Assembly (NCBI GenBank): GCA_902772905.1
Contig: CACYCL010000142.1
Coordinates: 15,105-79,104, forward strand
Length of the DNA: 64,000 nt
Origin: an uncultured bacterium
GTDB lineage: Bacteria > Verrucomicrobiota > Kiritimatiellia > RFP12 > UBA1067
Direction: 5' to 3'
Shown here one piece after another: positions 14,422-35,637 of the stretch. Under the pieces are notes generated by a model. That model saw only the letters and a list, made by a program, of their open reading frames with translations. It searched no databases and was not told the origin of the DNA. The stretch's first letter is position 1. Every line of letters begins with the position of its first letter. The position numbers and the translations under genes are program-made.

Positions 14422-14481
14422 GTAGGTTCTCCTCTTAAAGTTCATTCCAAGGTTCTTTGTGGGTTTCACGTTCAATGCTCC

Positions 14482-17900: not shown

Positions 17901-20900
17901 GAAGTTGATGTTCGTGAAAGTCGTCCAGGAGCCCTCCGCCGTCTTTGTGAGCGACTGGAAGCCCGAAAGCGGAACGCCGTTCGTGGCGATCTGCACGAGA
18001 AGCACCGCGTTCGACTGCGCGTTCTCGTACGTGAAGCCAAGCTGGCCGAGGCCGAGGCCCTTGTCGCCGTCGCCCACCATGCGCGGGGAGCGTATCGACG
18101 AGGCAACGTCCGCATACGACCTCTTGGCCGAGAGCAGAACCGCCTTGCCCTTCTCGCCTGCGGAGTTCACCGTCTCGCGAACCCAGCCCTGCGTGAACAC
18201 GATGTTCGTGGGAGAGCCATACACGAGGTCGTCGAACACGCCGAGCTGGTCGCCGTTCTCGTCGTCGTAGCTTTCGCCGCGCCACTGCGTGAACTCGATG
18301 TCGTCAAGCGTAACGTCCACGCGCGCCGTCTTGAAGCCGCCGCCGGCCTGCAGCCTCACGGAGCACGGATCAAGGCTGTATAGCGGAATCGTCGTGGTGG
18401 CGCCCGAGGAGCTGGACGACCCGAAGCCCGAAACCTCCTGCGACTTCAGAAGCGCCCACTTCGTAGTTCCCGCAGGTGCGGTGTACACGTCAACCGTAGT
18501 GGAGGGTGTCTTCGCGTTGATGCCGTAGCTGTTGAAGTCGCCCGTATTCACAGCCTCCATGCGCGACTTGTTTATCGCCCACTTGCCCGCCGCCAGGTCT
18601 TCTCTGCAAAGGACACGCGCCGAGGTCGAGATCGGCGTTATGGTGTATGTTCCCTGCTGGAAGCCGTTCTGCGAAGACGATGCCTGGTACGTAACCGCCG
18701 ATGCGCTGTACGACGGCTGCATGAAACGCGCCGGGCAGTTCGCCGAGAGAAGCCCGTACGTTCCGTACGTAAGGCGCTCTGCGGACGTGTCACGGTACAT
18801 GACCTCGCGGTACGACGCGCTGTTGAAGAAGCTCGACCTCGCAACGGAGTCTCTCGCAACTCCGCCGACTACGCGCGTCTGGCCGTCCACCGACGTATCG
18901 ACCGATATGAAGAGCCGCGCATAGCTGCCGCCCTCGCTCGTGGTGTTGAACATGTTGTTGCCGTTGGAGTGCGTGGCGGTGCCGAGGCGCGTCGGAACTA
19001 TCTCGCCTTGCTCGTCGTCGTACAGCCAGCGGTACAGCGAAAGCCTGAACGTCGTGCCCGGCGAAACAACTCCAGCCGTGTTGATCGATGCGTTTTCCTG
19101 TTCCACCCGAAGCTCATAGCACCCAACCCCAGTCGTGTAGTGCGCAACGAGCGAGAGCGACGCATTGCCGGCGAAGTTCCTCCTGCCGTTTATGTCGAAC
19201 GCCGCAGCCGTCATGAACGTATATGTGCTAAGCGAAGTCGCGTCTGTTCGGAAATAGCTGAAGTCGCCAAACGAAATGTCCTGCGCGATTCGCGCCTTGA
19301 ACGACACCGACTCAAGCCCGCGCGGCGCGCCCGTGAAGTCAACGAGCTGAATGTAGCCCTTGCCCTTGCCCTCCATCTGGAGCGCCATTCCCGTGTTGTT
19401 GTCGCGGTAGAAGCCGTTCACCCACTGTCCGGGGCCAACGTCGAACGCCGTGTTCGGCGATATCGCCGCGCCGAACGGCTGGTACAGCGGCCAGGAACCT
19501 CCGTCCAGCTCCGCCTTTGTCGCGTAGAACGCCTCCTGCCAGTACTGGTTCGTCGGAACAGAGATGTTCCAGCTCTCGAAGTGCGACTCGTGCGTTACTG
19601 CCTCGGCGGTCGTGCCCGACATGTTCACCGAATTCGTGTCGGAGGAAGTTCCAACGAAAATGCCCTTGCCGTCCGTCTTGTTTGCGTCTGTCCAGCCGTT
19701 GAAGTCCTGGTAGTCGGCGTGGACCACCGTGTAGGCGAGCGTGTCGTCCTGAATCTGAACCATTATCTGCCCGCTCTTGGCGTCGCATGGAACGGTATGC
19801 CACGCCCAGCCGTCGTCGTTATCGCTTGCGGCGAGCACACCCGTCGCCGGCAGGTCTCTCGCGTTTTCCGCGAGAGAGTAGCGCACCGTGTTGAGGTCGT
19901 ATTCGGTGTTGCCTGCCTCCTGCCTGTTGTTGCCGGCGATTCGAATGTAGATCCCGCCGTCTATCGCAGTGCGCGTCGGGCAGAAGCCGCGCCAGATGTG
20001 GTTGGCCGAGAGCGACATGTCGTACGCCTTCTCCTCGCCGTCCTCGCTCTCCTTTACATAGAGCGTGAAGCCCTCCCAATCGCTCTCGCCGCGCCTCAGG
20101 CGGAAGAACCAGTCGGTTCCGCCGCTCGGCAGGCTCGTGTAACCCGTAACGGAAATCTGCCTGTTGGTGCTTGCCGTCACCTCTTCGGTGTAGAGCGCGC
20201 TGCCATCGGCGCCATTGAGGTCGAGACCAAGGCCAGAGTAGTCGTAGTACTTGAACGCCGGAACCTGAACTACGTAGTCGTACCAGAACTCGATGTCGCC
20301 AACAACTGCGGGAATGTCGATTGGCTGTATCGAGGTGAACCCGGCCGAGGGGCGAAGGTTTATGGTCTGCCACTCGTTCGTCTGCTGGTTGAGATAGCGC
20401 CAGCGGTAGTTCATCTGCGCCCAGGCAATCGGCATATCAACCGCTACGTGCGCGTTCACGTTGGTGTCAACAAGCGCCTTGGCGCGGGCGTACACCCCTT
20501 TCGCGCCGGCCTTCGGGAACGGTACGCTCATCGCGCCACCCCAGCCGCGCACCTGCCGACCCGTCAGCTTGTTGTTGAACGACCCGTAAGGCTCCAGCGA
20601 CGCCGTCGACTTCGGGTACGAAACGAGAATGTTGTCAACAACTATAAAGCCGTATTCGTCGGCAGTCCACGTCTGGTTTGGAATCTGTGCCGTGCGGACA
20701 ATCCTGAAGCGCACGTTGCCGCCGTTGTCCACGGGAACCGCCACGCGGTAGAAGTTGTCGGCGGTGCCGCCGTTTGTGATCTCAAGCGTCAGCTCCGTGG
20801 CATCCGTCTGGTCTGGCGCAAAAGCCGCAGTGTTGTCGCGCTTGAACGGCTTCATCGCGTATGCGTTGTAGTTGGTGCCGCCGTCAACAGACACTTCAAC

Positions 20901-23615
20901 CCTTATCTTGTAGCATCCGGCATTGGCGTACCTGGTGTCGGCGTTTACAACGTCGAAGTAGATCGTTCCCACGCCGTTCGTGTAAAGGGGCGAGAATATC
21001 ACCGCGCCTTCTACGTTGCGCATAAGCATGGTGCCCTGCTCGGTCAGCCCCGCCGCCGCAGACTCGGCCGATATCGCCTTCGCTGTTGACGAATTAGGTA
21101 GATAGCAACGTACGCTTCCCGGAATACCTCCGGCTAAGTACGTGTTGCCTATGACGACATCTTCCAGCGTCCACAACGCATTGGCATTGCCGCTTGAATC
21201 TGTGGTGTAAAGCACGTGGTTTGCATACGGCTTGACATACGGGAAACTTCCTATGTTTACACTGTGATCCACAGAATGTACCCAGTACGTAGAATGCACT
21301 GAGCTGTCCGTCTGCCAGTACGACTGGTCGGTTACGGAATGGCCGCCGGGGGCGGAGTCGTCGTTCACTAGCAGAACGCGCCCGTTCTGCGTAAGCCCGC
21401 CCGCGTCGCCCGCGAGATCTTCGTAGGTGATGTGGCCAACTATGAAGAAGTCGATGCCGTACTCAAGCGTTTCGTATATACCTTCCGGGTCGTGCGGACC
21501 AAACACCGCGCTGTACGAGCCGCCGGCGGTCGGGATGCCGCTCATTACCGCGCCCGTGTTGAGGTTCGTAACGTAGAGAAGCGCCGATGTGCCTTCTTTG
21601 ACCGCGCCCACGCTCTGAACCGCTCCTATCTCGGAATCGGTTGAATCCCACTTTGTCTTCGTGAGCGACGGGTAGGCCGTCCAGTAGTTCACGCGCTTGC
21701 CGTCGCGAACAACCAGGTCGAAGGTGCAGCTCGGCTGTGCGCCGGAAGGCTCGTCTACGGAGGCGGAGCGGCTTGGCGGCTCCTTGCCGTCGCGAACATA
21801 CCAGAAGAGGCGAATCACCTGCGAGCTGGTTGTCATGGTCGGCAGCTTTACCCAAATGACCGATTCGCCCGAAGTGTTCCAGTAGTCAACCTTGTAGTCG
21901 AGGAGAGTGCCGTCCGCATCGGTTATGGCGAGGTCTTCGCCAGTCTTGCCGGCGCGCGAGTAGAGGAAGCCGACAGGCGCATCCTCGGCAACCTTCAGCG
22001 CGTAGGAGTAGTCGGTGGCGGCGGCAGAAGCGCCCGCTATCGTTATCTCCACGTAGTCGCGGTAGACGTCGCCCGGACCGTTCAGAATCTTGAAGCTCGT
22101 AATTGCCTCGGCGCCGTTGTAGCTGTCGGTAGCCTCGATGTAGGCGCGCAGGTAGTAGGTGCCAACCTCCGTAGGCTTTTCGGCCGCCCACGGCCCAGTG
22201 GCAGATTCGCCATACCAGTACGTAGGCGCAACTGCAATGGAGACGTCGCAGCCCGGATTCGGCGTAGCCTCGTCGGGAGTGCCGTAGATCCAGTTGCGAA
22301 TGGAGAGGTTCGTTATCTTGGGCGTGGCCTTGCTGATCGTGAGCGTAACCGTAACCTCCTCATTGCCGCCCGTGGACCACTCAAAGCCGTCAACGAGCGT
22401 GACCTTGGCCTTGTAGGTTCCGAAATTAGTGCCAGCAACGCTTTCAACCACCTGACCGTATGTAGCCGAACCCTCGGTCAAGTCGGTAATCACATACGCC
22501 GCGTTCGCGGGAACCAACACATGCTCCAAGCCGTCGAAAGCAATCGCCTGAGAGACCGGCTTTGCGATTTCGCCAACGGCTATAACGCTAATTCTGATGT
22601 ACAGAACGCCCTGATAGCCGCTACCACCGCGTGTAGTCGCGCGCGCTGGAAGCGCACCACAGCCGCCGCCGCCACCGCCGTAGAATGTAGCGTCAGTTGC
22701 CGCTACGTTAAGGCCGTAACCGCCGTTGCCGCCGCCACCCTTGCCGCCAGCGATGGGGTCGTGCGACGCAGTGAACGACTTGTCGCAAAAGCCGCCCGCG
22801 CCGCCACCTGCATAGTAGATTTCTTCGCCAGTGATATCGCTTGCGCGACCGTCGCCGCCTACAGGGTTGGTCGTGGAAGCCGCAGCACCTGCAGCGCCTG
22901 CACCGCCGCCGCCGCCGCCGTAAAGACCACGGTTACCAGCACCGCCTGCATAACCCTGACCATTGGTTGCTGCGCCGCCTGGATGACTCTCACTTACCGT
23001 TGTACCTGAACGATAAGCTGAACCGCCGCCTCCGCTGCCACCGTCAAGACCATCGCCTTCACCACCGCCACCGCCTCCGCCGACCGCCGTGATCAGCGCC
23101 GTTTCACCAATGGAAAGCGTTGTGTTGCCGCCAGACGAGCCAGTGTATCGACCACGCGTTGCACTATGCAACTGCGACGACGCTCCACCTGCGCCACCCG
23201 AACCAACAGTAACAGAATACGTGGCAGAATCAAAAACACTAGTCGTCTCTACCATGCCACCTGCGCCGCCACCTGCGCCAGCACCATAATACGTTGTCAT
23301 CGCAGTGGAAAGAGTGCATATGCCTCCTCCGCCACCTCCGCCGCCGACCGCGAGAACTCGAGCCTTGGTCTTCGAGCCTTCGGGAAGCACAAACGAGCCT
23401 TCGCCGGTGAACTTGAGGAGCAGCTCGGTGCCGTTGAGCCACGTTACATCTGCCGCGCCGTAGTACTGAACTTCGCCGCCAGTCACCGTGGCGCTGCCAT
23501 CAAGAGCCTTTGCATCGCGTACGAGCGATGCCATAAGAGAAAGCACGACAAGAGCGCGCGCCCATAGCGCCGCCCCGCTCCTTTTCTCGCGTTTCTGGAA
23601 GCGATTACGCGTCAT
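14928..23615 (-). CDS. Giant secreted glycine-rich protein (about 2895 aa)
   Basis: One uninterrupted ORF. I moved the start to the ATG at 23615 (MTRNRFQKREKRSGAALWARALVVLSLMASLV, signal-peptide-like) with an AAGGGAG RBS. The N-terminal 350 aa carry poly-Gly and GGxGG tracts. The stop is 18 nt from the lipoprotein gene start. Confidence 0.75.
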   Translation of the reverse strand: MTRNRFQKREKRSGAALWARALVVLSLMASLVRDAKALDGSATVTGGEVQYYGAADVTWLNGTELLLKFTGEGSFVLPEGSKTKARVLAVGGGGGGGGICTLSTAMTTYYGAGAGGGAGGMVETTSVFDSATYSVTVGSGGAGGASSQLHSATRGRYTGSSGGNTTLSIGETALITAVGGGGGGGEGDGLDGGSGGGGSAYRSGTTVSESHPGGAATNGQGYAGGAGNRGLYGGGGGGAGAAGAAASTTNPVGGDGRASDITGEEIYYAGGGAGGFCDKSFTASHDPIAGGKGGGGNGGYGLNVAATDATFYGGGGGGCGALPARATTRGGSGYQGVLYIRISVIAVGEIAKPVSQAIAFDGLEHVLVPANAAYVITDLTEGSATYGQVVESVAGTNFGTYKAKVTLVDGFEWSTGGNEEVTVTLTISKATPKITNLSIRNWIYGTPDEATPNPGCDVSIAVAPTYWYGESATGPWAAEKPTEVGTYYLRAYIEATDSYNGAEAITSFKILNGPGDVYRDYVEITIAGASAAATDYSYALKVAEDAPVGFLYSRAGKTGEDLAITDADGTLLDYKVDYWNTSGESVIWVKLPTMTTSSQVIRLFWYVRDGKEPPSRSASVDEPSGAQPSCTFDLVVRDGKRVNYWTAYPSLTKTKWDSTDSEIGAVQSVGAVKEGTSALLYVTNLNTGAVMSGIPTAGGSYSAVFGPHDPEGIYETLEYGIDFFIVGHITYEDLAGDAGGLTQNGRVLLVNDDSAPGGHSVTDQSYWQTDSSVHSTYWVHSVDHSVNIGSFPYVKPYANHVLYTTDSSGNANALWTLEDVVIGNTYLAGGIPGSVRCYLPNSSTAKAISAESAAAGLTEQGTMLMRNVEGAVIFSPLYTNGVGTIYFDVVNADTRYANAGCYKIRVEVSVDGGTNYNAYAMKPFKRDNTAAFAPDQTDATELTLEITNGGTADNFYRVAVPVDNGGNVRFRIVRTAQIPNQTWTADEYGFIVVDNILVSYPKSTASLEPYGSFNNKLTGRQVRGWGGAMSVPFPKAGAKGVYARAKALVDTNVNAHVAVDMPIAWAQMNYRWRYLNQQTNEWQTINLRPSAGFTSIQPIDIPAVVGDIEFWYDYVVQVPAFKYYDYSGLGLDLNGADGSALYTEEVTASTNRQISVTGYTSLPSGGTDWFFRLRRGESDWEGFTLYVKESEDGEEKAYDMSLSANHIWRGFCPTRTAIDGGIYIRIAGNNRQEAGNTEYDLNTVRYSLAENARDLPATGVLAASDNDDGWAWHTVPCDAKSGQIMVQIQDDTLAYTVVHADYQDFNGWTDANKTDGKGIFVGTSSDTNSVNMSGTTAEAVTHESHFESWNISVPTNQYWQEAFYATKAELDGGSWPLYQPFGAAISPNTAFDVGPGQWVNGFYRDNNTGMALQMEGKGKGYIQLVDFTGAPRGLESVSFKARIAQDISFGDFSYFRTDATSLSTYTFMTAAAFDINGRRNFAGNASLSLVAHYTTGVGCYELRVEQENASINTAGVVSPGTTFRLSLYRWLYDDEQGEIVPTRLGTATHSNGNNMFNTTSEGGSYARLFISVDTSVDGQTRVVGGVARDSVARSSFFNSASYREVMYRDTSAERLTYGTYGLLSANCPARFMQPSYSASAVTYQASSSQNGFQQGTYTITPISTSARVLCREDLAAGKWAINKSRMEAVNTGDFNSYGINAKTPSTTVDVYTAPAGTTKWALLKSQEVSGFGSSSSSGATTTIPLYSLDPCSVRLQAGGGFKTARVDVTLDDIEFTQWRGESYDDENGDQLGVFDDLVYGSPTNIVFTQGWVRETVNSAGEKGKAVLLSAKRSYADVASSIRSPRMVGDGDKGLGLGQLGFTYENAQSNAVLLVQIATNGVPLSGFQSLTKTAEGSWTTFTNINFAAMSAAERASGTVRVYFGLHGVRGAMRIMVDPATVAAVEDVTDPTAFGEVTITGVMFRDEPVLDAHSWWGWNLRTTDDGALVSIDDNASDPLKNGLAFALNNSIVDDIRTDGSADEYKKKYPLLQTPTFATNMVNEVSFLARLYDPKAGTARVTLYGATYGDLSEESMWAKLTSWDITNTTYEAYAKRFPAGSAYKAFRLAVTGVDGVTEPMADEEPLVPAQRVLIDEVLVMEGIVASVSFRNVGAFRTGLEETTAVTNVPSAAQQPLVGEEWGVQCEVYASQLADEIDLSSARVRLWWYEQPAPWGFDKWRDLPDAKNAWLMEASDSNLVFRSGYFGASAAVMPAQKSMMPVQYMLEVIYRANGQPQTNWLSSAEWENPPWYRPIDYNAQYGNGSFSAYTLLDTVAPGWAWINEANVFGVYDDNYNNSDKPLQFVEVAAPSDASLSGWTLRFLDAKMSGSDPVRLTGVVTNDVAEFGMNGLPATKTELKGIDAESKMVFHVIGSPNAKGSLDASDGRLDGTWTVANATDSVMNGEIQSYYPLAVQLVRPSGVVESEIVVLGTNEWSYVSSFNPEYAAAMLSAQERGGDFIYVGADEGGVPAGNAWSRSVGVFAGNGSAAIQWNNTQLMTPGRKNEGQAITGEPPKARGGALMIYSIIQGDNLAQSFGSETNTAGSVTVVYRKGSEEGTNITYRAGRWHEIGTVTVNGMYATPVPTGNDREWTLSVGAATSNDITVVASAKVDSSLAERYGVGEDSRYRNAIVNWLVRGTDAYGNEWHNKDATELGLADKAEANGTVTTNMTLTEMYWFDIDPTWNDHDIRLCAGWSGSESPRPKSGSNDLTSRVYMQITNTAAGGPGWAPYILQGVELLENSWEYAKIESDLLWTNATFKVKGLLGVNGLSVDSAEERNWIPLRWFVFTPTSFDADFTSVVEILDPFSTESPGYSARWYEWAQTHGRPSSLFFKWDVSDRSMPTEAEIMKTANPCRPEE

Positions 23616-23671
23616 CCGCTCCCTTCTCAACTTTTCTTTTCGTTCTCTTTTTTCTTCGTTTCATTGCAAGG

Positions 23672-23822: not shown

Positions 23823-25133
23823 TTACCGCGAGCAGAGCCTCGCGGCGAAATCGTTCAGCGCAAGGCAGTTGCGGCGAAACGCGCGCGCAGCCGCAGAATT
23901 GCGCCGCATCTCAAGGGCGCTTATGGCCGGAGCGTCAGGGCAGCCGCTTAGCAGCACAAGCCGCCCTGCGGCGATCTCGCGGGAGTCTTCGGCCGAAGGG
24001 TCGTAGCGCGGCGGCAACGAATGCGGCAGCAGCTTTACGAACCGCGCGCCAGGCGTTGCCTTGAGGCGGCGCAACGCCTCGCGCTCGCCCGGCGAGATAA
24101 AGCCCGATACTGGCACTCGCCCGCGCTTGGCCTCTTCGACTATTTCGGCTATAGCTGCCTCATGCTCGGCAACGGTCTTCTTCAGCGTTAGCCGAACGTG
24201 AAAGAAAAACGGCGAGCCTAAAACCGTTACGTCGCCGAAGGCGTGGTAGAACCTGGAAAGAACGGGGCTCCGCCCCGAACCCTCGCCAGCCGCCAACGAA
24301 CCGCGCGCTGCGCCCTCGCCAGCCGCGCCAAAGCCCAGCAGCTTCTCGGCTGGTATCGCAACGCGGCGAAAGCGGTCGGGGTGGCGAAGCCGCCAAATCG
24401 CTCGCGCAGGGTTCAGCTTTATGTAGCGCCGCGTTGCCTTGAGCTGCCGCGAATCGAAGGAGAGTTCTATGTAGCAGCTGCGGTCGAAGAACCGCTGAGG
24501 CTCTTTGCGCTCGCGGCCAGCGCGCCAGCCAGCAGTTTCAGCTGCTATGGCCTCGCGCATAAGCTCTGCCATTGTTTCGCGCAGCCCATTCGCCGCCGCG
24601 CCAGCTACTGCGCCAAATTGGGGTTCGGGGCGCGCAACGCTCGCGCCAACCGCCGCGCCAAATTGGGGTTCGGGGCGCGCAACGCTCGCGCCAACCGCCG
24701 CGCCAAATTGGGGTTCGGGGCGCGCAACGTTCGCGCCAACCGCCGCGCCAAATTGGGGTTCGGGGCGCGCAACGCCCGCGCCAACCGCCGCGCCAAATTG
24801 GGGTTCGGGGCGAAGCCCCGTCCGTTCCAAGTACCACTCAACAGCATCCAGCAACCTATGGCTAAGGTAAAGCGGGCTTACGCGGCGGTCGCGCCCATAA
24901 TCAACGATTAAAACAAAATGCAGGTGATCTGGCATTATAACGAAATCTGAAACCCCTACCGCCTTGTTAACTTGGTGCAGCGCCAGCAACGCCGCCTTTA
25001 CAACCTCGCCAACCGCGCTCAGCGCCGGCCTTGCGGTTTCATCGACCAACTTCGAGAGAATCTTAGCCCGCCCTGCAACAGTAAGCGTTACAAAGAAAAA
25101 CTGCCGCCCTGAATGGCTGTAATCAAGCTTCAT
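23823..25133 (-). CDS. IS200/IS605-family (RAYT-like) HuH tyrosine-transposase-like protein carrying an internal 5 x 15-aa tandem repeat and a roughly 200-aa C-terminal extension
   Basis: HuH motif VSDFVIMPDHLHFVLIV. Candidate catalytic Tyr context ATRRYIKLNPARAI, which is RAYT-like. Five ARPEPQFGAAVGA[SNG]V repeats sit between these two motifs. Confidence 0.6.
   Translation of the reverse strand: MKLDYSHSGRQFFFVTLTVAGRAKILSKLVDETARPALSAVGEVVKAALLALHQVNKAVGVSDFVIMPDHLHFVLIVDYGRDRRVSPLYLSHRLLDAVEWYLERTGLRPEPQFGAAVGAGVARPEPQFGAAVGANVARPEPQFGAAVGASVARPEPQFGAAVGASVARPEPQFGAVAGAAANGLRETMAELMREAIAAETAGWRAGRERKEPQRFFDRSCYIELSFDSRQLKATRRYIKLNPARAIWRLRHPDRFRRVAIPAEKLLGFGAAGEGAARGSLAAGEGSGRSPVLSRFYHAFGDVTVLGSPFFFHVRLTLKKTVAEHEAAIAEIVEEAKRGRVPVSGFISPGEREALRRLKATPGARFVKLLPHSLPPRYDPSAEDSREIAAGRLVLLSGCPDAPAISALEMRRNSAAARAFRRNCLALNDFAARLCSR
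24596..24815. repeat. 45-bp tandem repeat, about 4.5 copies, in-frame inside the RAYT-like CDS
   Basis: The unit cgccaaattggggttcggggcgcgcaacgctcgcgccaaccgccg repeats head-to-tail with only 1-2 substitutions per copy. Each unit contains the hairpin GGCGCG-caacgct-CGCGCC. Confidence 0.85.
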
Positions 25134-25214
25134 CTTGCACTTCTCTTTCTCCCATGTGCGCGTGTATTATACTAAATGCGTTTGCACGGAGCAAGGAGCG
25201 TTTACATTCCCTCC

Positions 25215-25372
25215 GCACCCGCGCAGGGAAACCCTTTGTCCCGTGTAGGGAACCCGTTTGCTCCGTGTAGGGAACCCGTTCCCCCCGTGTAGGGAAACCG
25301 TTCCCCCCGTGTAGGGACAACGCCCACCCCGTGCAGGGAGAGCGCCCACCCCGTGCAGGGGAGAGCCCCCGG
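25215..25372. repeat. Array of about 7 degenerate 22-bp tandem direct repeats (REP-like palindromic units) immediately 5' of the RAYT-like gene
   Basis: Units match ccgtgYagggRaMMcgYYcMcc. Examples are ccgtgtagggaacccgttcccc x2, ccgtgtagggaaaccgttcccc and ccgtgcagggagagcgcccacc. Several units form GGGAAC-cc-GTTCCC hairpins. There are no unique spacers. Confidence 0.8.
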
Positions 25373-25380
25373 GGGTGAGA

Positions 25381-25422
25381 AAACGGACAAAACAACGAAG
25401 CCGCAGGGTTTCCCCCGCGGCC
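25381..25422 (-). terminator. Rho-independent terminator of the GLUG-motif protein gene
   Basis: Minus-strand RNA reads GCCGCGGGGGAAACCCUGCGGC, an imperfect 8-bp stem, followed by UUCGUUGUUUUGUCC. It lies about 30 nt after the stop at 25454. Confidence 0.5.
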
Positions 25423-25453
25423 TCGCTGTTTGGCTTATTCGGCCTTGAGCAGC

Positions 25454-28400
25454 TTAGTTAGCGAACGGCGTCGGGCTGAGCTTGACCTCAATGAAGCCCT
25501 GCGTCGTGCCAGGCTTGGTGACCTCAACGCCAGTACCATCGGACACGCCCGTCTGAGCATTGCCGCTGATCGGCAGAGCCGTCGACGGAGTGACCTTGTA
25601 GTACAGGCCAGCAGGAACCGCAACCTTGCCATCGCCAGTGCCATCGAGGAGCTTCACAGCGTCGGTGCTGACCGTCGTCGTGACCTCTTCCTTGATGCCA
25701 GTCAGCGTAACGGTGTACTCTCCAGCTGTTGCGCCAGCTGTCGCCGTGAAGTTGAAGAGCGCCTTGTACTCAGCAGCGTCAGCACCCGAAGCAGCCGGAG
25801 GCGTGACCGTCACAGCCTCGATGGCAGCCGTATCGGACTCCGCCGCAACCGTCACCTCGACCTTGCTTGCACTAGGATCGATCACGGGAACCACCGGAGC
25901 CGCAGCCGTGTAGGTCGTGACCGTGCCAACGGTGGCCGACGTGACTTCCAGCCCCTCATCCGCCGTGATGGCAAACGTCGGGGTGGCCAGAGCCGTGTTG
26001 AACGCAATCGTTCCAGCAGCGGTGAACTTGAACGTTGCCGTCACACCATCAGCCATAACCTTGTAGGTATTGCCAGCCGCGAGCGCGTTGTCAGCCACGA
26101 AGGTGGCGACATTGCCGTCGACCGTCGCGAAGTTCAGGCCAGAGATGTTGGCGAAAGCACCCGCCGGAGCCGCGTCAGCCTGAGCTACAACACCGCCAGA
26201 CACCGTCGCCGACGTGTCATTCTGCATCGCAATGATCGTGCCGACCTTGATCGGATGTGTACCACCATCCGCCGTAGTATCCGTAGACTGGATTGTACCC
26301 GCGTTTCCGCCACCATAGATCGTGATTGCCTTTGATCCATAGCCAACGAGACCACCAGCACCATTGCCGGCATTGTTGCATTTCTTGCAGGTAATCGTGA
26401 TGTCACCATAGTTCCAGCAGTTCGTAAACGCCGCAGCAGCATCCTGCGCAAGACCGACGATACCGCCGATTTTCGGGTTGTCGTTCAGCGAGCAGACGAT
26501 GTTAACGTAGTTCGTGCAGTTCTCGAAGACGTTGCCGCCAGCAGACTTCACCGCAAAGCCGCCGCAAGTGTGCATCGCCGGCTTCGCCGTCGTGCCGATC
26601 GTACCGGTGGCCACGCAGTTCTGGATCTTCGAGTTCTTCATGTTGCCGGCGAAAGCGGAATAACCGTGTTCCGCAGCGGCCGTCTGTTGGATGTCCGTCA
26701 CATTAATTGTGAGATTCGAGATTGTGGAGTCCAACACCTGGTTGAAGAAACCACGATACTTGGCAGCGGTGAACTTCACGTTGCTGATGGTGTGTCCAGC
26801 ACCGTCGAACGTACAATTATTGAGACCAGAGCTACCATTGGTGCCACTTGCAGTACCAATGCCATCCCAGTATCCTAGGCTATCAGCATCAATGTCGGCC
26901 GCCAGCCTGAAGTTCTGGCCGGAGGTTCCAAGCTTGGCAACACCATCCTTGAATTTCACTAGTTCAGCAAGGTCGTCGATCTCATACGCACCGTTGACAG
27001 GCGCGCCGAGGAATGCAGCCCAGGAGTTAGGCGCGTACTGAGCCGTGTAGGTCGCATTGGCGACGGCGGCAACAGGCGTCACATCCCAGCCCGTGAACTC
27101 CCAGCCCTCAACGTTGTAATCAACAGCCGTCGGCACTTGCGGCAAATCGCCCTCTGCAACCGTCTGCGGATATTCAACGTAAGGCATGCCATATTTGAAT
27201 GTAATCGTATAGGTTACGACTGGCTTGTCAATGACCGCACAGAGTCCATCGACGGGCGTCTCGGCGAATACCTTGCCATCGACGAGGCAATCTGGTAGTG
27301 GGATGGCAAAGGCACCACCAGAGATGATTTTGAGCGTACCCTTATAGCTTGCGTCAATATCAATTGGCAACGCTTCGTCGCCCCAGAAGTTGCCGCCCGT
27401 GATTGCGAGCTCGCTGTTCACGGTCTCTTCATCGACGGGGAAGGTCGCTGTCGTCTGGTAGATGGCAGCGCCTGTGCTCGTGCAGTTGATGCCGCCGGTG
27501 CCAACGGAGTTAGTGACGATGAGCTTGAGCGCGCTGTTCGTGATGGCAGCGAACTCAGATGTATTCGTGAGAACGAAACCAGCGAAGTCGAGCGTGACTT
27601 CAGCATTGGCGGAGAACGTCATCGGCTCTTCAAGCGTCAGACCCTTCGCGAGAGTCAGCTTAGCTGCGGACGTGGCATTGTTAATCTTGCCAACCGCATC
27701 CGCGAACGAGGTTACTTCCTCAGCCTCGCCATCACCGATCTTGACGGTCGCAACCGGCTCTTCAAGCTCTTTGTCCGCTGCGAAATCAGGAGCTGTGCTG
27801 GTGAAGACAATGTCGGTGATCGAACCAGTGCCGTCGAAACCGGCCTTGGTGAGCGTCGTCTTGTCGCCACTCTGAATCAGAGACGGGAAGCAGTCGCCTG
27901 CCATCTTATCCAGATAGGCCGCCACCTTTGAAATGGGGTACTGCGACGAGAACGCCGTATCCCACTTCTTAGTGGACGTACCAACCGTAGCCTGGTCGAT
28001 ATAGATTGCGAAGCCAGGAACAACCGTTGTGCTCGTCGTGATGTTCTTTATCGACTTGATGGTGACGCGGTGGAATGCATCAGCGTCAAATCCAGCCGGC
28101 AACGCGCATTCGTATGTAGCCGCTGTCACCTGCACATCTAAACCAGCGGCGTAAGTGAGGCTACCGGCCTTAACCATCAGGTTCGTCGGGCCAGTGCCGT
28201 CCTCGCTCTGCAGCCACATGACGATCTTCGCGTTATCATACGTCTGAGTAGGCGCGTCTTCGCAGACCGTGAACTTCACGAGCGAGTCGAAGTAGATGCC
28301 CGTGTCGATGTCCTGAGCGGTGCCACCTGCGACAACGCTGACATCCAACGGGTTGCCGAACGTGGTCTTGATGTCAAGCGCCTTGGTGGTAGGATCCTCA

Positions 28401-28633
28401 CCAATCTGGCTCGGCACCGTGCACGTACCAATATTCGCCGCATTGACTGTGTATGTATTATTGCTCGCGCCTTCACCGTGCGAGAAATAATTACCGAGCG
28501 CAGTATTGAGGCCGTTGGTGGTTATTACACCCTCCGACAGGTTCTCAAACTGGAGCTTGGTATCGGATTGGAGCGCCGCGAACGCGCCAAGCGCGGCCAC
28601 GGCTCCGACTACTGTTACTAGCAGTTTTTTCAT
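25454..28633 (-). CDS. Secreted surface protein (about 1059 aa) with GLUG-like Gly-rich repeats
   Basis: I moved the start to the ATG at 28633 (MKKLLVTVVGAVAALGAFAA, signal peptide) with an AAGGA RBS. GLUG-like segments include KIGGIVGLAQDAAAAFTNCWNYGDITI and GNGAGGLVGYGSKAITIYGGGNAGTI. Confidence 0.7.
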   Translation of the reverse strand: MKKLLVTVVGAVAALGAFAALQSDTKLQFENLSEGVITTNGLNTALGNYFSHGEGASNNTYTVNAANIGTCTVPSQIGEDPTTKALDIKTTFGNPLDVSVVAGGTAQDIDTGIYFDSLVKFTVCEDAPTQTYDNAKIVMWLQSEDGTGPTNLMVKAGSLTYAAGLDVQVTAATYECALPAGFDADAFHRVTIKSIKNITTSTTVVPGFAIYIDQATVGTSTKKWDTAFSSQYPISKVAAYLDKMAGDCFPSLIQSGDKTTLTKAGFDGTGSITDIVFTSTAPDFAADKELEEPVATVKIGDGEAEEVTSFADAVGKINNATSAAKLTLAKGLTLEEPMTFSANAEVTLDFAGFVLTNTSEFAAITNSALKLIVTNSVGTGGINCTSTGAAIYQTTATFPVDEETVNSELAITGGNFWGDEALPIDIDASYKGTLKIISGGAFAIPLPDCLVDGKVFAETPVDGLCAVIDKPVVTYTITFKYGMPYVEYPQTVAEGDLPQVPTAVDYNVEGWEFTGWDVTPVAAVANATYTAQYAPNSWAAFLGAPVNGAYEIDDLAELVKFKDGVAKLGTSGQNFRLAADIDADSLGYWDGIGTASGTNGSSGLNNCTFDGAGHTISNVKFTAAKYRGFFNQVLDSTISNLTINVTDIQQTAAAEHGYSAFAGNMKNSKIQNCVATGTIGTTAKPAMHTCGGFAVKSAGGNVFENCTNYVNIVCSLNDNPKIGGIVGLAQDAAAAFTNCWNYGDITITCKKCNNAGNGAGGLVGYGSKAITIYGGGNAGTIQSTDTTADGGTHPIKVGTIIAMQNDTSATVSGGVVAQADAAPAGAFANISGLNFATVDGNVATFVADNALAAGNTYKVMADGVTATFKFTAAGTIAFNTALATPTFAITADEGLEVTSATVGTVTTYTAAAPVVPVIDPSASKVEVTVAAESDTAAIEAVTVTPPAASGADAAEYKALFNFTATAGATAGEYTVTLTGIKEEVTTTVSTDAVKLLDGTGDGKVAVPAGLYYKVTPSTALPISGNAQTGVSDGTGVEVTKPGTTQGFIEVKLSPTPFAN

Positions 28634-28696
28634 TGTTTTTTTCCTTTGTTTGTTTACCACAAATTCGTCACCCATTCGGGTGTACACTTCTGCTTA

Positions 28697-28762
28697 CATT
28701 GCGAATTATACCATACACCCGTTCGGGTGACAAGGGGGGATTTGAAAAAAATTGAAAATGGA
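28697..28762. repeat. Pair of inverted 17-bp hairpin-containing elements in the 5' leader of the GLUG gene
   Basis: The two halves are gtcacccattcgggtgt and acacccgttcgggtgac. Each contains a CACCC-NNNN-GGGTG hairpin. They sit 65-130 nt upstream of the ATG at 28633. Confidence 0.4.
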
Positions 28763-28773
28763 GAATGGAGTGT

Positions 28774-28810
28774 AAAACGGCGCCGCCGCCGCAGGCGACT
28801 CCACAATTTT
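28774..28810 (-). terminator. Copy A of a conserved hairpin element (aacggcg..CGCCGCAGGCGACTCCACAATT), terminator-like, 3' of gene 28829..29425
   Basis: A CGCC-GCA-GGCG palindrome is followed on the minus strand by GUUUUAC. It lies 20 nt after the stop at 28829. The sequence is conserved with copies B and C. Confidence 0.45.
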
Positions 28811-28828
28811 CAATTCGCCCTTCTTACT

Positions 28829-29425
28829 CTACCCAACTTTTCCCATCACCCAAAGCATCGCCTTGAGTAATGTGAGCGCGGCAACTAAAATACCTGCAAC
28901 CTTAGCCGAAAAAGTGAGCCAGACATTTATCTTCTCCCTGCGAACTGCAACTGATATCTCTTCGGCGTGAAACAGCAATTTGCCAAGAATGTTGTCCAGT
29001 TCTTCTATCGCCGGGGCAAGAGCATCAAAGGCCACCTCTCGGTCATCTCCGTGTTTTATCTGCGCATCTCGGTGAAGATTTTGCGCGTCACGTATCCTCT
29101 CGAGCCAAGCGGGGTACTCCGGTACAACTTTCCTCACGACCTCTGCGTACCCGAGAAGTTTTTCATGGATATCGCAAAGTGTGCTCAGTTGACAGTCAAG
29201 AACTATGTCACACGAATCAAAATAGGCACGCTTCAAATGTCCAATGGCCTTATGCGCATCCTCTCCACAAAAATCGTTTTTTGCACAAGCCGTAAGAACA
29301 TGGCGAATAGCGTATCGCCACTCATTCAGGACAGGTGACACGAACGTCGTGCTGACCTGTTCAATCAGCTTTATGTTTGCTTCTGTCTTATCAACAAGGG
29401 ACAATGCGGCTTCAGCGGAAGTCAT
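28829..29425 (-). CDS. Hypothetical protein (198 aa) with a C-terminal transmembrane anchor
   Basis: Clean ORF in the lower-GC island. The C-terminus LTFSAKVAGILVAALTLLKAMLWVMGKVG is hydrophobic. I recognised no family. Confidence 0.55.
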   Translation of the reverse strand: MTSAEAALSLVDKTEANIKLIEQVSTTFVSPVLNEWRYAIRHVLTACAKNDFCGEDAHKAIGHLKRAYFDSCDIVLDCQLSTLCDIHEKLLGYAEVVRKVVPEYPAWLERIRDAQNLHRDAQIKHGDDREVAFDALAPAIEELDNILGKLLFHAEEISVAVRREKINVWLTFSAKVAGILVAALTLLKAMLWVMGKVG

Positions 29426-29597
29426 ACGCCAAAACCCTTTGCTTCTGCTTCGCGTACTCTCGCTCGGTCATGATACGCCCAAGCTGAAGCTTAACGTTGC
29501 CACGCGAATAGCGAGCAACGATGCGCTTTTCCTGCGTATCCGAAGCAGTGTCAGGGAGCCTGAAAACCGCACGAAGCCTCAAAATGCTTTGTTCCAT
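29412..29597 (-). CDS. Possible small protein (61 aa) overlapping the start of the membrane-protein gene
   Basis: ATG at 29597 giving MEQSILRLRAVFRLPDTASDTQEKRIVARYSRGNVKLQ.... It overlaps the downstream gene by 14 nt. The call is weak. Confidence 0.25.
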   Translation of the reverse strand: MEQSILRLRAVFRLPDTASDTQEKRIVARYSRGNVKLQLGRIMTEREYAKQKQRVLAYDFR

Positions 29598-29643
29598 GCT
29601 GAATATTATATCATATTGACATTGCGGCTGCAACAAGGGTGGT

Positions 29644-29686
29644 TTTGAAGGGAACGGCGGTGGCGCCGCAGGCGACTCCACAATTA
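29644..29686 (-). terminator. Copy B of the conserved hairpin element, 3' of the truncated ATPase gene
   Basis: The sequence is aacggcggtggcgccgcaggcgactccacaatt, with a double hairpin on the minus strand followed by UUCCCUUCAAAA. It lies 37 nt after the stop at 29723. Confidence 0.45.
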
Positions 29687-29722
29687 TACATTCTTCATTT
29701 TACATTCCCCTCGTCAGGGGGG

Positions 29723-30880
29723 TTAAACGCCAAGCAATTTGCGGAACGGAATGATTGCCGAAAAATACCCGTCAGCCGCAACAACCGGGGACAGAGTTCC
29801 AAAATATACAAGAGACACAAATGCAGACATTCCACAAGGGCGCTTGACCGACGCGACCTTGCCGCTCATCTCGTCAATGATGCTTCTTCCGATTTCTTTC
29901 TTGCGCTTGACTTCAACAAAGCAAAGAGCCTTTCTCGTCTGGATAAGCAAATCGACCTGACATCCCTTTCGTCCACGGGGAGAATTCGACCCTCTGCGCA
30001 AATACGGAGCAGCCGAGGTAATCACAGAGCCTTTCAAATGCAAATGCGGAACAAGCTCATGGTAGTTGTTGACGACCAGGTTTTCAAAGGCAAGTCCCAT
30101 TACGGCATCCATGTTCTCCAGCGCATCAAGGCCGGCGAATTCATATTCGTCGCGATCGATCACGGCCTTGACTGGCTCGATGAACTTCAGATAGAAACGG
30201 CAGTAGTTGTCGCTCATACGATATCTGTTTTCTCGCAGCTCCTCGCCGGTTTCCGGGTTCTTTCCCCTGTCTGACATGACAAGACCAGCTTCTGCCAGAC
30301 GCTCCATGGCATCGCTAACCCTCCCACCCTTCCCGATCTTAAGTTGCCTTGCCACCTCAACCGCTGTGCGAGGACCATCCACAAGACAGCGCAGAACCTT
30401 GGCCGTGAAATCCTGTTGCCTTGTTATGACATCATTAAACATTTCGTCGAAGTCATTCCTCAATACGCCGTCATGGGAAAATGCCATGCGGCGTATGTTT
30501 TCGCCGGCGGAAAGTCTTGGGTTCACTTCTTCCAGATAACGAGGAACACCTCCCGTGACCGACAAAACGTCCACAATTTCCTTAAGGTCGATGCGGTCGA
30601 CTTCGCGTCCCCAGAATTTCACGCACTCCTTAAGCGGCAGTTCGCGGACAACCAGGTCGCATGATCGTCTGCCGACAAATGCTGCACTATCGACAATATT
30701 CTCCTTGATCCAGCTCGAAACGCTTCCGCACAATACAAGTATCAGCCTATCGTGTTTCTTCCACATGTTGTCCCATGCAATCTTGATGGAATCCGCGAAA
30801 AGCTCGTCATAGCGGCCCATCCAAGATATCTCATCCAGCAGAACAACTGTCCACACATCGTCTTTTATTTCATGATCCAA
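29723..30880 (-). pseudogene. 5'-truncated paralog of the DUF234-type AAA ATPase; it lacks the first roughly 100 aa including the Walker A motif
   Basis: The translation begins at the Walker B region (VVLLDEISWM), aligning to residue about 110 of the full-length paralog at 31350..32795. The only available start is TTG and there is no SD. An in-frame stop lies two codons upstream. The break coincides with the 31-bp hairpin repeats. Confidence 0.5.
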
Positions 30881-30958
30881 TCGCTTAAAAGCCGAAAGCC
30901 AGCAGTCCGGAAGCGAAGACTCTGCTTCTGTCGCGTGGAGACATTATACACTATTTGT

Positions 30959-31042
30959 CCCCTATTTTGCAATAGGCAGATTAGGGGATAAAAAAGATGC
31001 CAGGAAAATTTAGCCCCTATTTTGCAATATGCAGATTAGGGG
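30959..31042. repeat. Two copies of a 29-31-bp hairpin element (cccctattttgcaatakgcagattagggg) spaced 55 bp apart
   Basis: Each has a CCCCTA...TAGGGG stem. On the minus strand each carries TTGCAA, and the proximal copy lies 18 nt upstream of TATAAT (gtgTATAATgtc), a promoter-like arrangement. They sit directly upstream of the truncated ATPase fragment. Confidence 0.6.
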
Positions 31043-31080
31043 ATATTATTTGATAGGCTTGAGCACAGGGTTTTCAGACC

Positions 31081-31125
31081 ACGGAAGAGCACTGAAACCG
31101 CCGCTTGGCGGGCACGGAAATGGTT
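31081..31125. repeat. Copy 1 of a 45-bp direct repeat (acggaagaRcactgaaRccgccgcttggcgggcacggaaatggtt)
   Basis: Near-identical to copy 2 at 32921..32965. It contains a CCGCC-gctt-GGCGG hairpin. ORF-track entries 31029..31316 and 32842..33192 share GRALKPPLGGHGNG only because both read through this repeat. Confidence 0.6.
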
Positions 31126-31326
31126 GCGAATGGGAGGCCGCAGGCGCAAAGAAACCCTGTGGCCGCCATATTCCACACAAAACAAAAGTGACGGGAAACA
31201 CTTCTCGTCACTTAAGGCGAGGACAATCCCCCCGCATCCCGATGACTCCAGCCTTACAGCCTTCATCAGTGCGTATTCTACCAAATCTGATGCCAGTAAG
31301 CAAGAGGGGGGGCTGAAAATGCAAAA

Positions 31327-31352
31327 CAGCGGTGTCGCCGCAGGCGACTCTA
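31327..31352 (-). terminator. Copy C of the conserved hairpin element, abutting the stop codon of the full-length ATPase gene
   Basis: A perfect GTCGCC-GCA-GGCGAC hairpin at 31334..31348, followed on the minus strand by ACCGCUGUUUUGCAUUUUC. Confidence 0.45.
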
Positions 31353-32795
31353 CCCAAACAGCTCATCAAGCGAAACTACAGACTGCACACGGCTCGAATA
31401 TTGATTCTGCAAAAGGCCGCTGGTTGTCACAAGTGTAAGATGAAGCGCTTTCTTAATGCCAGTCACGCCGGCGAATGTTGCGGTTTTCCTGTCGAGATCC
31501 TCGTCATACGCCTTGTCTATGGCGAATGCGTTTGCCGAATACTTCATCTCGCAGATGTTGACGACGTTGTCTGCCCTGTCAAGAACAAGATCTATCTGAA
31601 CCCCCTTCGGGTATGTCTCATTGCCCCTGAAAACCCATCCATATGCCTCGACATGCACACTGCCAACGCCCAGCGCCCTGCGAATCTGCGGCAGATGCTG
31701 CAGACACAGCCGCTCGAACGCAAGGCCGCGCCAGACCGCCTGCGCCGGCGATGCTATCGTCACCGACCAGAAATGCTCGTCGGTCGGCGGCGTATCGAGA
31801 AATCTGAAATGAAACAGGGTGAAGTTGTCAATGAGCTGGTAGACAGTGTTCTTCTTCTTGGCTCCGTACGACCGATAGCTTCTTATGAAACCGCTGGCCT
31901 CCAATGTCTCAAGCGTCTCGGAAAGCCTGCCTGTCGCTTCTATGCCCAGCACATCCAGCAACTCGATCCGGCTCATGCCGGCTTTCTTTCTGCCAAGCGC
32001 CTCCACGACGTTCTTGTATGACGATGCATTGCCGAAAAGAGAGGCGTAAAGATCGTTGAACTCTCCTCGCAGGGGCGCGTCGATGGCAAAGCAGATGCGG
32101 TCGAGATTCTGCGCCAGGCTCATTCCACGCGCAAGATAACGCCAGTAGTAAGGAATGCCGCCAAGCGCCATATAACATTCGGCGATGTCCTTTCTGCTCA
32201 TGCTGAGGCCACGTTCTACAGCCAATTCCTCGCACTCTCCGAGAGTAAACGGCTTAAGGTAGATTCGCGCCGTGACGCGATTGTGCAGACCTCCACGATT
32301 GCGGAAAAGGTTCTTGACCATCCAGGCGGCCGCCGAGCCGCAGACAATCAGCATTACATCCTTTCTTGCCGAAGCCCATTCGTTCCAGAAAGCCTGAAGC
32401 GCCGTCAGAAAATCTGACTTGGCAGTGTCCATCCAAGGAAGTTCATCTATGAAAACAACCTTCCGGCGCAGGGAGCTTCTTGAAATGATCTCCCTTAGCG
32501 AAGCAAAGGCGTCGAACCAGTTCTTAGGCACGGCCTTGGCAAGCCCGAATGTCGCCAACGATGACCTGAAATGTGAAAGCTGCTGCCTTTTGGTGGCGTT
32601 TGGCAAACCAGTATGATGAAAAGCGAAACGATCCGCAAATGTTTCGCGCACTAGAAATGTCTTTCCCACGCGTCGACGACCGTAGACGGCAACAAACTCC
32701 GACTCGTTTGAATTGAACAGACGAGTCAATTCAGTTATTTCATTTTTTCGCCCAACCATATCAGGTATTCCTTTTTTGTGGCCGAATGATATCAA
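31350..32795 (-). CDS. AAA+ ATPase of the archaeal-ATPase/DUF234 family (481 aa)
   Basis: Walker A is VAVYGRRRVGKTFLV and Walker B is VVFIDELPWMD; the C-terminus is DUF234-like. A promoter-like TTGACT-17-TATCAT lies upstream on the minus strand. Confidence 0.7.
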   Translation of the reverse strand: MISFGHKKGIPDMVGRKNEITELTRLFNSNESEFVAVYGRRRVGKTFLVRETFADRFAFHHTGLPNATKRQQLSHFRSSLATFGLAKAVPKNWFDAFASLREIISRSSLRRKVVFIDELPWMDTAKSDFLTALQAFWNEWASARKDVMLIVCGSAAAWMVKNLFRNRGGLHNRVTARIYLKPFTLGECEELAVERGLSMSRKDIAECYMALGGIPYYWRYLARGMSLAQNLDRICFAIDAPLRGEFNDLYASLFGNASSYKNVVEALGRKKAGMSRIELLDVLGIEATGRLSETLETLEASGFIRSYRSYGAKKKNTVYQLIDNFTLFHFRFLDTPPTDEHFWSVTIASPAQAVWRGLAFERLCLQHLPQIRRALGVGSVHVEAYGWVFRGNETYPKGVQIDLVLDRADNVVNICEMKYSANAFAIDKAYDEDLDRKTATFAGVTGIKKALHLTLVTTSGLLQNQYSSRVQSVVSLDELFG

Positions 32796-32920
32796 ATTTT
32801 CGTTATTAAGTCAATCGTTCCAATGATGTTTCATCATTTCTGTGCTTTATCACTATTGCAGAACGATATTAAGAACAAAAATCAAAGCTTATCCACCATT
32901 CTTCCTTGTACCAAATCACT

Positions 32921-32965
32921 ACGGAAGAACACTGAAGCCGCCGCTTGGCGGGCACGGAAATGGTT
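32921..32965. repeat. Copy 2 of the 45-bp direct repeat, about 126 nt upstream of the full-length ATPase gene
   Basis: See copy 1. It is followed by atataatga. Confidence 0.6.
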
Positions 32966-35505: not shown

Positions 35506-35514
35506 TTGTCTAAT

Positions 35515-35539: not shown

Positions 35540-35637
35540 CTGAATACATAAGTTAATTAGTTTTTTAACATAAGCCGCACATTTTATGGTATATTATTGG
35601 GCGAAACGTCACACTAGACAACAAGATACTTTAAACA

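Follow-up and report, generated by a model that had tools for sequence, protein, structure and literature searches.

The 64-kb window analyzed here (the whole stretch of 64,000 nucleotides from contig CACYCL010000142.1 of an uncultured member of the Kiritimatiellia) carries, at positions 25219-25372, a tandem array of seven 22-bp units, located upstream of a gene for a protein with a HUH (histidine-hydrophobic-histidine) nuclease domain. It is a copy of a discrete, polar intergenic element of gut and rumen Kiritimatiellae, and what its units conserve is a contiguous asymmetric 11-mer, not a dyad. The reading tentatively preferred here is that the array is a platform for protein binding on duplex DNA, phased with the helix and similar to iterons or operators; in it, the binding of a protein, the duplex as its target, and an effect on transcription are inferred.

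The seven units, given here for the + strand (the antisense strand of both flanking genes), follow one another head to tail and start at positions 25219, 25241, 25263, 25285, 25307, 25329, and 25351, with a spacing of 22 bp in six of six steps and a 1-nt insertion in the last unit. From the first to the seventh they read CCGCGCAGGGAAACCCTTTGTC, CCGTGTAGGGAACCCGTTTGCT, CCGTGTAGGGAACCCGTTCCCC, CCGTGTAGGGAAACCGTTCCCC, CCGTGTAGGGACAACGCCCACC, CCGTGCAGGGAGAGCGCCCACC, and CCGTGCAGGGGAGAGCCCCCGG. Each consists of a conserved asymmetric core of 11 nt, CCGYGYAGGGA (positions 1-11), followed by an 11-bp spacer that is variable in sequence and fixed in length. Tandem Repeats Finder (TRF) returned the same 22-bp period with scores of 97-123, and the core CCGTGYAGGGRA, allowing up to one mismatch, had seven matches within the array and one in the remainder of the 64 kb; the expectation was 0.95, and a count of eight was reached in none of 100 shuffles. 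The array region has 62% G+C and lies 86-239 nt upstream of the ATG (25133) of the minus-strand HUH gene (23823-25133). An initial annotation of this DNA had described seven tandem 22-bp units ahead of the start of this gene, in a layout unlike that of bacterial interspersed mosaic elements (BIMEs), and it was right on these points, as the strictly phased, head-to-tail arrangement resembles neither BIMEs nor REPINs (hairpin-forming doublets of repetitive extragenic palindromic, REP, sequences). No cluster of cores in inverted orientation occurs anywhere in the 64-kb window. In four strains of one species (the window and the loci L034, L042, and L043), the entire 320-bp spacer that holds the array is identical and the number of units is unchanged, whereas a 45-bp repeat inside the HUH gene varies.

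The window contains a single array, and the family is found at nine further metagenome loci. These came from an exact-pattern scan of metagenome contigs of the Joint Genome Institute (JGI), which returned 14 loci, nine of them with arrays of the window unit family; they represent at least eight distinct contexts, as L048 and L055 are the same place, the count being one over metagenome contigs and not per genome. BLAST alignment of the window with L051 (92% identity over 106 bp) and with L060 (84% identity over 165 bp) showed that the array alone is shared and that the flanks are unrelated. The array as a whole is a discrete, polar element of roughly 110-165 bp. Everywhere, its parts come in the same order: a boundary TTCCCTsCGCAC, then units of the types ..CCCTTTGTC, ..GTTTGCT, ..GTTCCCC, ..ACAACGCCCACC, and ..AGAGCGCCCACC. 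The initial annotation had read the 3' units as progressively decaying; however, since the same order of unit types recurs across loci, the apparent decay is better described as conserved heterogeneity, units 5 and 6 being conserved variants and unit 5 being identical in L060. Furthermore, 26 of 26 adjacent core-to-core intervals (seven loci) measure exactly 22 bp, although the spacer sequences between the cores have diverged, indicating a constraint on length or phase and not a recent duplication.

Wherever the flanking genes are readable, the array sits between co-directional genes with constant polarity. Its distal units often begin only 0-14 nt past the upstream stop codon, as in L060 (..VKVPIK-stop) and in L047, L048, and L055 (..GPNFFGA-stop), and its boundary end faces the downstream gene, from which it is often separated by G/T-rich and then C/A-rich simple repeats. 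This downstream gene is the HUH gene in the window, an HU-like gene in L048, a truncated HU-like copy together with an ABC ATPase in L060, and a small lipoprotein gene followed by serS in L051; the array lies upstream of the small lipoprotein gene in L051 and downstream of it in L060. No match to the array emerged when 72,556 plasmids and 50,697 phages were searched by BLAST, or when IMG/VR was scanned with the unit pattern.

Two further observations concern the surroundings of the metagenome arrays. The first 24 codons of the HU-like gene (MTVKFITVKGPDRLARAPFYLGIP) are shared in sense orientation by L048 (about 640-720) and L060 (about 2520-2600), in a common stretch that includes the upstream array and a simple-repeat hairpin, and the two sequences diverge after codon 24. 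L060 thus appears to keep a truncated HU-like remnant fused to other sequence, with a recombination junction just downstream of the array. In addition, imperfect long inverted repeats, G/T-rich (GGTTGAAA, GTTGGTA) and then C/A-rich (CNAAAC, CCAAC), occur in L060, L049, L051, L048, L052, and L035 between the array, or the hairpin motif described below, and the next gene start.

The units had also been regarded as palindromic hairpins of the form GGGAAC..GTTCCC, and this part of the initial annotation did not hold. The palindrome GGGAAC-CC-GTTCCC, a perfect one of 14 nt, is intact only in units 3 and 4 of the seven, and in the whole family set of 42 units from nine loci at least five of the six stem pairs are kept in only 8. 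In the same set, positions 1-11 of the unit carry 1.25-2.0 bits of information each and positions 12-22 mostly less than 1 bit. A formal count over the 33 distinct units gave 58% paired cells versus 55.5% in shuffles; stem registers slid by +1 or +2 pair as well as, or better than, the proposed one, and the register that joins arms across unit junctions gave a marginal signal at best. Covariation supporting a hairpin, inside the units or over their junctions, was absent or at best marginal. The array, folded as single-stranded DNA (ssDNA) or as RNA on either strand, was no more stable than dinucleotide shuffles (z of -1.1 to -2.2), and in the window array and the L060 module no significant structure emerged except the terminator and the boundary inverted repeat. 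A search for the palindrome GGGAACNNGTTCCC through the rest of the window and 41 loci located it in the array only, and Rfam gave chance-level matches (E of at least 0.8), none of them at gathering score, in the region, the window, or the nine array loci. One trait of REPs is present: positions 5-8 of the unit spell GTAG (G in 40/42, T in 33/42, A in 39/42, and G in 41/42) directly before a G-rich arm, which agrees with the tetranucleotide at one end of a REP palindrome, GT[AG]G or CGTC, an agreement that could be coincidental. The dispersal of the array family among unrelated intergenic sites is a second REP-like trait, whereas the units are not conserved hairpins.

The sole consistent palindrome of the element, and its sole consistent hairpin, lies at the promoter-proximal boundary (25207-25230), where an inverted copy of the core, TTCCCTCCGC (25207-25216), faces the core of unit 1, GCGCAGGGAA (25221-25230), with 9 of 10 positions complementary and a spacer of 4 bp. 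The same boundary TTCCCTsCGCAC closes the array at other loci. Farther toward the HUH gene, a putative sigma-70-type promoter can be recognized on the minus strand from the sequence and its homologues (25166-25194), with a -10 box TATAAT (25171-25166), a weak -35-like TTGCTC (25194-25189), and a 17-bp spacer; a consensus promoter scanner made no call for it, and the HUH homologues have a conserved TGGTATAAT at the equivalent position. Relative to the transcription start expected from this promoter, the array spans about -60 to -213. On its other side lies a co-directional gene of 1077 aa (25454-28687, minus strand; no family match), and directly past its stop codon an intrinsic-terminator-like hairpin with a T-rich tail (25390-25431, minus strand) parts it from the array, so that stop codon and terminator both precede the distal end of the array. 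With this terminator on one side and the TATAAT beyond the other, the array is probably not transcribed in the window.

On the preferred reading, a sequence-specific protein would bind at the phased cores along a single helical face, 22 bp corresponding to two helical turns; it would bind cooperatively, the inverted boundary serving as a dimer-type site, and the platform, placed between the terminator and the -10 box, would modulate the HUH promoter or insulate it from the upstream gene. A platform on the duplex fits best with the combination of strict phasing, an asymmetric core, a spacer of fixed length, an inverted end, and no ssDNA structure. The position of the inverted core copy beside the promoter recalls iteron-plus-operator layouts, related genomes contain arrays of the same geometry with other cores, as in operator arrays, and unit order, boundary, and polarity are kept in unrelated contexts. 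Several observations nevertheless pull the other way. No binding protein was identified, and no regulator gene is common to the array contexts. Single core sites elsewhere in the window number 14, versus roughly 18 expected by a hand estimate, which is about the chance level and gives no sign of a regulon. The distance between the array and the next gene start varies, and several metagenome arrays that begin 0-14 nt after a stop codon have no obvious promoter behind them and are thus probably transcribed. Finally, spacers and unit order are kept across non-orthologous sites, indicating that the whole element is copied or mobile, which a model of a pure regulatory site would leave unexplained; a mobile or relic component in addition to the binding platform is therefore likely.

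The arrays of the same geometry deserve a closer description. L010 contains seven copies of 22 bp (8493-8647, GAACGCGTTC) between divergent promoters adjoining tRNA genes, L018 contains seven copies of 23 bp (1835-1995, GAGGGTATACCC) between the stop codon of the HUH gene and a TGGTATAAT box, about 60 bp upstream of that box, and L033 contains seven copies of 23 bp (3252-3412, ATGCGCATCA). All three keep a palindromic core of 10-12 bp perfectly or almost perfectly and have variable spacers; exactly seven copies thus recur in three unrelated arrays. Thirteen IMG/VR stretches (L061-L073), in several large viral contigs with 39 to 59% G+C, also have palindromes of the type TGATGCGCATCA with a 23-bp period, two to three of them, in the spacers of phage structural genes, upstream of a protein of 1668-1890 aa. 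These resemble a phage operator or late-promoter array akin to the one in L033. The density of arrays near HUH genes is, by the author's estimate, no higher than in the rest of the window.

A looser array with a period of 22-23 bp, with about four copies of CGCAAAAGTGCAnnnnTGCACT and a dyad AGTGCA/TGCACT, is present in the window itself (33062-33150) and is unrelated in sequence to the array at 25219-25372. It lies beside an AT-rich stretch in the spacer of a putative origin of replication. The AT-rich part (33290-33580) is directly upstream of mnmG/gidA (33580-35505), which is followed by dnaA (35638-37035); the long open reading frames from 2005 to 32795 are all on the minus strand and those from 33580 onward on the plus strand, and the cumulative GC skew is lowest near 33 kb. 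The region 32795-33580 is accordingly a probable chromosomal origin (oriC), about 8 kb from the seven-unit array. It is embedded in a stretch of low G+C (28000-42000, 43-52% versus about 62% elsewhere), which also holds two ATPase_2 genes (29723-30880, with an additional weak winged-helix match, and 31350-32795); a similar ATPase_2/DUF234 gene is found downstream of the HUH gene in L035.

The HUH gene (23823-25133, minus strand) encodes 436 aa, organized as an N-terminal HUH/Y1 domain, with a disordered repeat-bearing linker between its HUH and Tyr motifs, and a C-terminal DprA-like Rossmann domain. The HUH/Y1 domain displays the motifs MPDHLH and YIKLNP, and residues D69, H70, H72, Y237, I238, and N241 are invariant in 29 homologues. 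YIKLNP is a Y-motif of class 2, that is, TnpA-REP-like (Quentin et al. 2018, PMC6006769). The NCBIfam model NF047646 (REP_Tyr_transpos) matched residues 11-78 only, with an E-value of 3e-6 and 27 bits against a cutoff of 80. The protein had no match in Pfam (including Y1_Tnp), neither it nor its neighbors had one in PADLOC or PHROGs, and a sequence search of the PDB with a profile of the HUH family returned nothing meaningful. An AlphaFold model (predicted local distance difference test score, pLDDT, of 76) has three parts: an N-domain that Foldseek matched to the ISDra2, IS608, and IS200 transposases and to the E. coli REP-associated tyrosine transposase (RAYT) 4er8 (for 2xm3, 2vjv, 2f4f, and 4er8, TM-score on the target of about 0.5 and root-mean-square deviation of about 2 Å over 96 residues), a C-domain that matches the ssDNA-binding domains of DprA (4ljk and 5mll), and a linker (residues 115-178), disordered, that connects the HUH core to the helix with the Tyr. 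The protein is a genuine Y1 nuclease of the IS200/IS605/RAYT fold, fused to a DprA-like domain. Its earlier designation as RAYT-like is fair by fold, invariant residues, and the class-2 Y-motif, and does not extend to the curated RAYT model, whose threshold is not reached.

At least 690 homologues exist, of about 390 aa and nearly all unannotated, and all those assignable to a lineage belong to gut or rumen Kiritimatiellae, in which the gene is mostly single-copy (33 loci, two of them from one genome). No report of a HUH-DprA-like fusion was found in the literature, and in other genomes the gene has neither oriC nor dnaA within ±4 kb. On the 3' side of the HUH gene, the window has two giant genes, 14928-23630 (2900 aa) and 2005-14475 (4156 aa). 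The 2900-aa gene, the one giant gene scanned against Pfam, contains a Gly_rich_2 domain and is the conserved downstream neighbor of the HUH gene in a close clade (L035-L041); in some genomes, toxin-antitoxin modules (RelB/PIN, DUF4160/DUF2442) are inserted between the two genes.

Array and HUH gene do not travel together, contrary to the initial annotation, which had proposed that array, gene, and intragenic repeat form a self-contained module. Relatives of the gene at 75% identity (L044-46) and at 66% identity (L035-41) have no 22-bp array and carry in its place a PIN toxin gene or an AT-rich spacer, and no core cluster was found in 33 genome loci of more distant homologues; the array is thus absent from more than 35 homologue loci of other species or lineages. 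Conversely, the nine array-bearing metagenome loci, on short contigs of 1-5 kb, encode no HUH homologue. The array also occupies one side of the gene only, whereas REPtrons (REPs or BIMEs with their RAYT gene) are recognized by repeats on both flanks, usually inverted, across homologues. The flanks of HUH homologues in other lineages are rich in other tandem arrays (L004, L005, L009, L014, and L035). The intragenic 45-bp repeat, for its part, belongs not to the 22-bp unit but to a different motif of the gene family.

This motif, ACGGGGGC-loop-GCCCCCG[A/C]ACCCC, with hairpin arms ACGGGGGC and GCCCCCGMACCCC, is distinct from the 22-bp unit. Across L001-L041 it reaches 1.66 copies per kb in the homologous genes and 1.07 per kb in their ±300-bp flanks, against 0.05 per kb elsewhere in the loci, an enrichment of about 30-fold within and around the HUH genes. 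In 21 of the 33 loci, the hypervariable linker that joins the HUH motif to the Tyr motif is flanked by two copies, a sense one about +300 to +415 nt from the start and an inverted one mostly at +390 to +630 and up to +884. The reading frame through the motif differs between loci (15, 7, and 1 loci for the three frames), so that the motif is conserved as DNA and not as peptide. In the window, the sense copy CGGACGGGGCTTCGCCCCGAACCCC lies at 24800-24824 (minus strand), followed by 4.5 copies of the in-frame 45-bp repeat (24610-24812, minus strand), which encodes RPEPQFGAAVGASVA and contains GCCCCGAACCCC in each copy. Among four otherwise near-identical strains this repeat ranges from about 1.5 to 4.5 copies, giving proteins of 391, 406, 421, and 436 aa; in other lineages the linker repeats measure 18-45 bp, mostly a multiple of 3, and nearly all include CCCCGAACCCC. 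In sequence terms, the embedded motif pair in the enzyme's own gene looks REPIN-like. REPs within genes, as well as variable insertions that separate the HUH motif from the Y motif, are known from other TnpA-Y1 subclasses (PMC3733652, PMC6006769), and no description of a conserved inverted pair within the enzyme's own gene was found in the literature. By eye, the sense-strand array core CCCTGCAC and its start ACGGGG show a loose likeness to the motif of the gene family, CCCCGCAC/ACGGGG. The G/C hairpin in its own coding sequence, and not the 22-bp array, is the candidate substrate for the HUH-DprA enzyme.

What the array is if not a duplex-bound platform can be weighed against these data. The proximity of a Y1 HUH enzyme with a class-2 Y-motif and fold (PMC6006769) raises the possibility of a REP/RAYT system, in which the units would be ssDNA hairpins bound and cleaved by the adjacent enzyme, the array a product or substrate of that enzyme, and the element a repeat that spreads non-autonomously. 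The GTAG before the G-rich arm, the two perfect 14-nt palindromes, the arrays of other kinds that make the flanks of HUH homologues hot spots, the resemblance of the sense-strand core to the motif of the gene, and a dispersal, position after stop codons, and orientation bias like those of REPs (PMC3733652) would all suit it. This explanation is nonetheless unlikely: the hairpin is not conserved and shows neither covariation nor excess folding stability, gene and array occur without each other (with the array loci on short contigs), the gene family has its own 30-fold enriched hairpin, the phased layout is unlike BIMEs or REPINs, and the protein scores far below the RAYT cutoff. A broader version of the idea would unite the array, the G/C hairpin motif, and the HUH-DprA protein in an ssDNA editing module, a new non-palindromic REP system in the PVC (Planctomycetes-Verrucomicrobia-Chlamydiae) superphylum. 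The enzyme would then nick sites of the type xxAC|GGGG and so generate and remodel arrays in its own flanks and linker, with the phased 22-bp arrays as dispersed products or landing pads; this would explain the variation of the 45-bp repeat between strains, and is improbable as an account of the whole. A selfish or relic mobile cassette, of which the array, copied into intergenic sites, would be a terminal protein-binding region on the model of the Tn7 or Mu ends, or a remnant, with no dedicated function for the host here, is somewhat less probable than the plain REP/RAYT explanation. It would account for ordered units and a boundary in unrelated contexts that have nothing else in common, for one sharp end, for the shift of position relative to the lipoprotein gene, and for neighbors like those of mobile elements (small phage-like open reading frames, the HU-like gene with its truncated copy, and an Rpn-type nuclease). 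On the other hand, the 64-kb window has no second inverted end, no transposase is associated, viral contigs, plasmids, and phages gave no matches, and core and phase are evidently under purifying constraint, with a copy number constant in four strains.

An element acting as RNA could be either a stabilizer or processor of the upstream mRNA in 3' untranslated or intercistronic regions, a role that REPs have in E. coli operons, or an antisense small RNA (sRNA) that sponges a CsrA-like protein through AGGGA. Arrays 0-14 nt past a stop codon (L060, L047, L048, and L055), the constant polarity, seven regularly spaced A-N-GGA motifs on the + strand, and a hairpin after the array speak for it. Yet no Rfam family or significant structure was detected on either strand, a sense-strand terminator precedes the window array, the antisense strand has no conserved promoter at other loci, and RNA hairpins do not need a fixed spacing of 22 nt, all of which makes this a doubtful explanation, on a par with the ssDNA editing module. 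True replication iterons, belonging to the origin of an integrated replicon or to an accessory site of the nearby chromosomal origin, are the least probable explanation and very improbable in themselves. Seven phased direct repeats of 22 bp with a partial inverted repeat beside a gene start, about 8 kb from a probable oriC, would be expected of them; however, there is no adjacent AT-rich unwinding element, no DnaA box within 2 kb, and no iteron-type initiator, the neighboring gene being HUH/DprA-like, and the array appears in many chromosomal contexts and in none of the plasmids searched. The duplex-binding platform thus remains the tentatively preferred reading.

Some narrower candidates were tried and rejected. 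Promoters of the extracytoplasmic function (ECF) type (GGAAC-N16/17-CGT) or of sigma-54 within the units fail by spacing; a CsrA-sponge sRNA on the + strand has no conserved promoter before the array, and in L060 the array runs into a coding region; integron attC sites would have R/L boxes, which are missing; ops/JUMPstart is on the wrong strand and matches poorly; and a Tn7/Mu-type end has no second end or inverted core cluster in the 64 kb.

Comparison with known systems leads to the same place, as the array fails the defining tests of a REP/REPtron, an iteron origin, a Tn7/Mu end, and an Rfam family, and resembles the first two in different respects. REPtrons are reportedly known from the work of Nunvar in 2010 and of Ton-Hoang in 2012. 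The association of REP/BIME elements with RAYT (TnpA-REP) genes has been described by Di Nocera (2013, PMC3733652) and Quentin (2018, PMC6006769). The likeness consists of short G+C-rich repeats with GTAG by a G-rich arm, beside a single-copy Y1 HUH gene, and of an intergenic dispersal just past stop codons with an orientation bias. By contrast, most units here cannot form a hairpin and are phased head to tail instead of alternating or inverted, and the array is one-sided and absent at homologues, next to a protein that falls below the RAYT cutoff and contains a DprA-like domain in addition.

Among theta-replicating plasmids, the R6K gamma origin and pPS10 combine an iteron array with an operator, in the form of an inverted repeat, at the promoter of rep. 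Four repeats of 22 bp are present in the origin of the Chlamydia plasmid (PMC3601068). Iteron origins are recognized by phased direct repeats of about 17-22 bp; what the array shares with them is a run of direct repeats of about 22 bp at a fixed phase, each partly conserved, with a partial inverted copy toward the gene start. Unlike them, it has no initiator, unwinding element, or DnaA boxes and is chromosomal, in many unrelated contexts. The ends of Tn7 and Mu contain multiple 22-bp transposase-binding sites. They share with the array contiguous 22-bp direct repeats, a sharp boundary, and a block found in different genomic contexts, and differ in that the array has no second inverted end in 64 kb, no DDE transposase, and no conserved interior. 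Phased arrays of operators or upstream activating sequences (UAS) include lambda OR1-3 and the OmpR and PhoB box arrays. Like these, and like the arrays of seven 22- or 23-bp copies in related genomes, the window array has a conserved core, a variable spacer, a repeat length of two helical turns, and a position upstream of promoters; unlike them, its core is asymmetric, its seven copies are an unusually high number, and it has been copied between loci as a whole, spacers included.

If binding to the duplex is true, the element would be an undescribed, copyable regulatory cassette of gut Kiritimatiellae, with up to seven phased sites and an inverted end, that can be placed between genes. Sister arrays of the same geometry are found in the promoter region of a tRNA operon and, less regularly, at the probable chromosomal origin, and knowing which protein binds would give access to the architecture of promoters and chromosomes in a phylum for which genetics hardly exists. 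More surprising than the array itself is the HUH-DprA gene, with its inverted hairpin pair and hypervariable in-frame repeat. For this lineage, the REP/RAYT question is narrowed to a putatively domesticated Y1 transposase with a hairpin in its own gene as the candidate substrate, a proposal that is biochemically testable.

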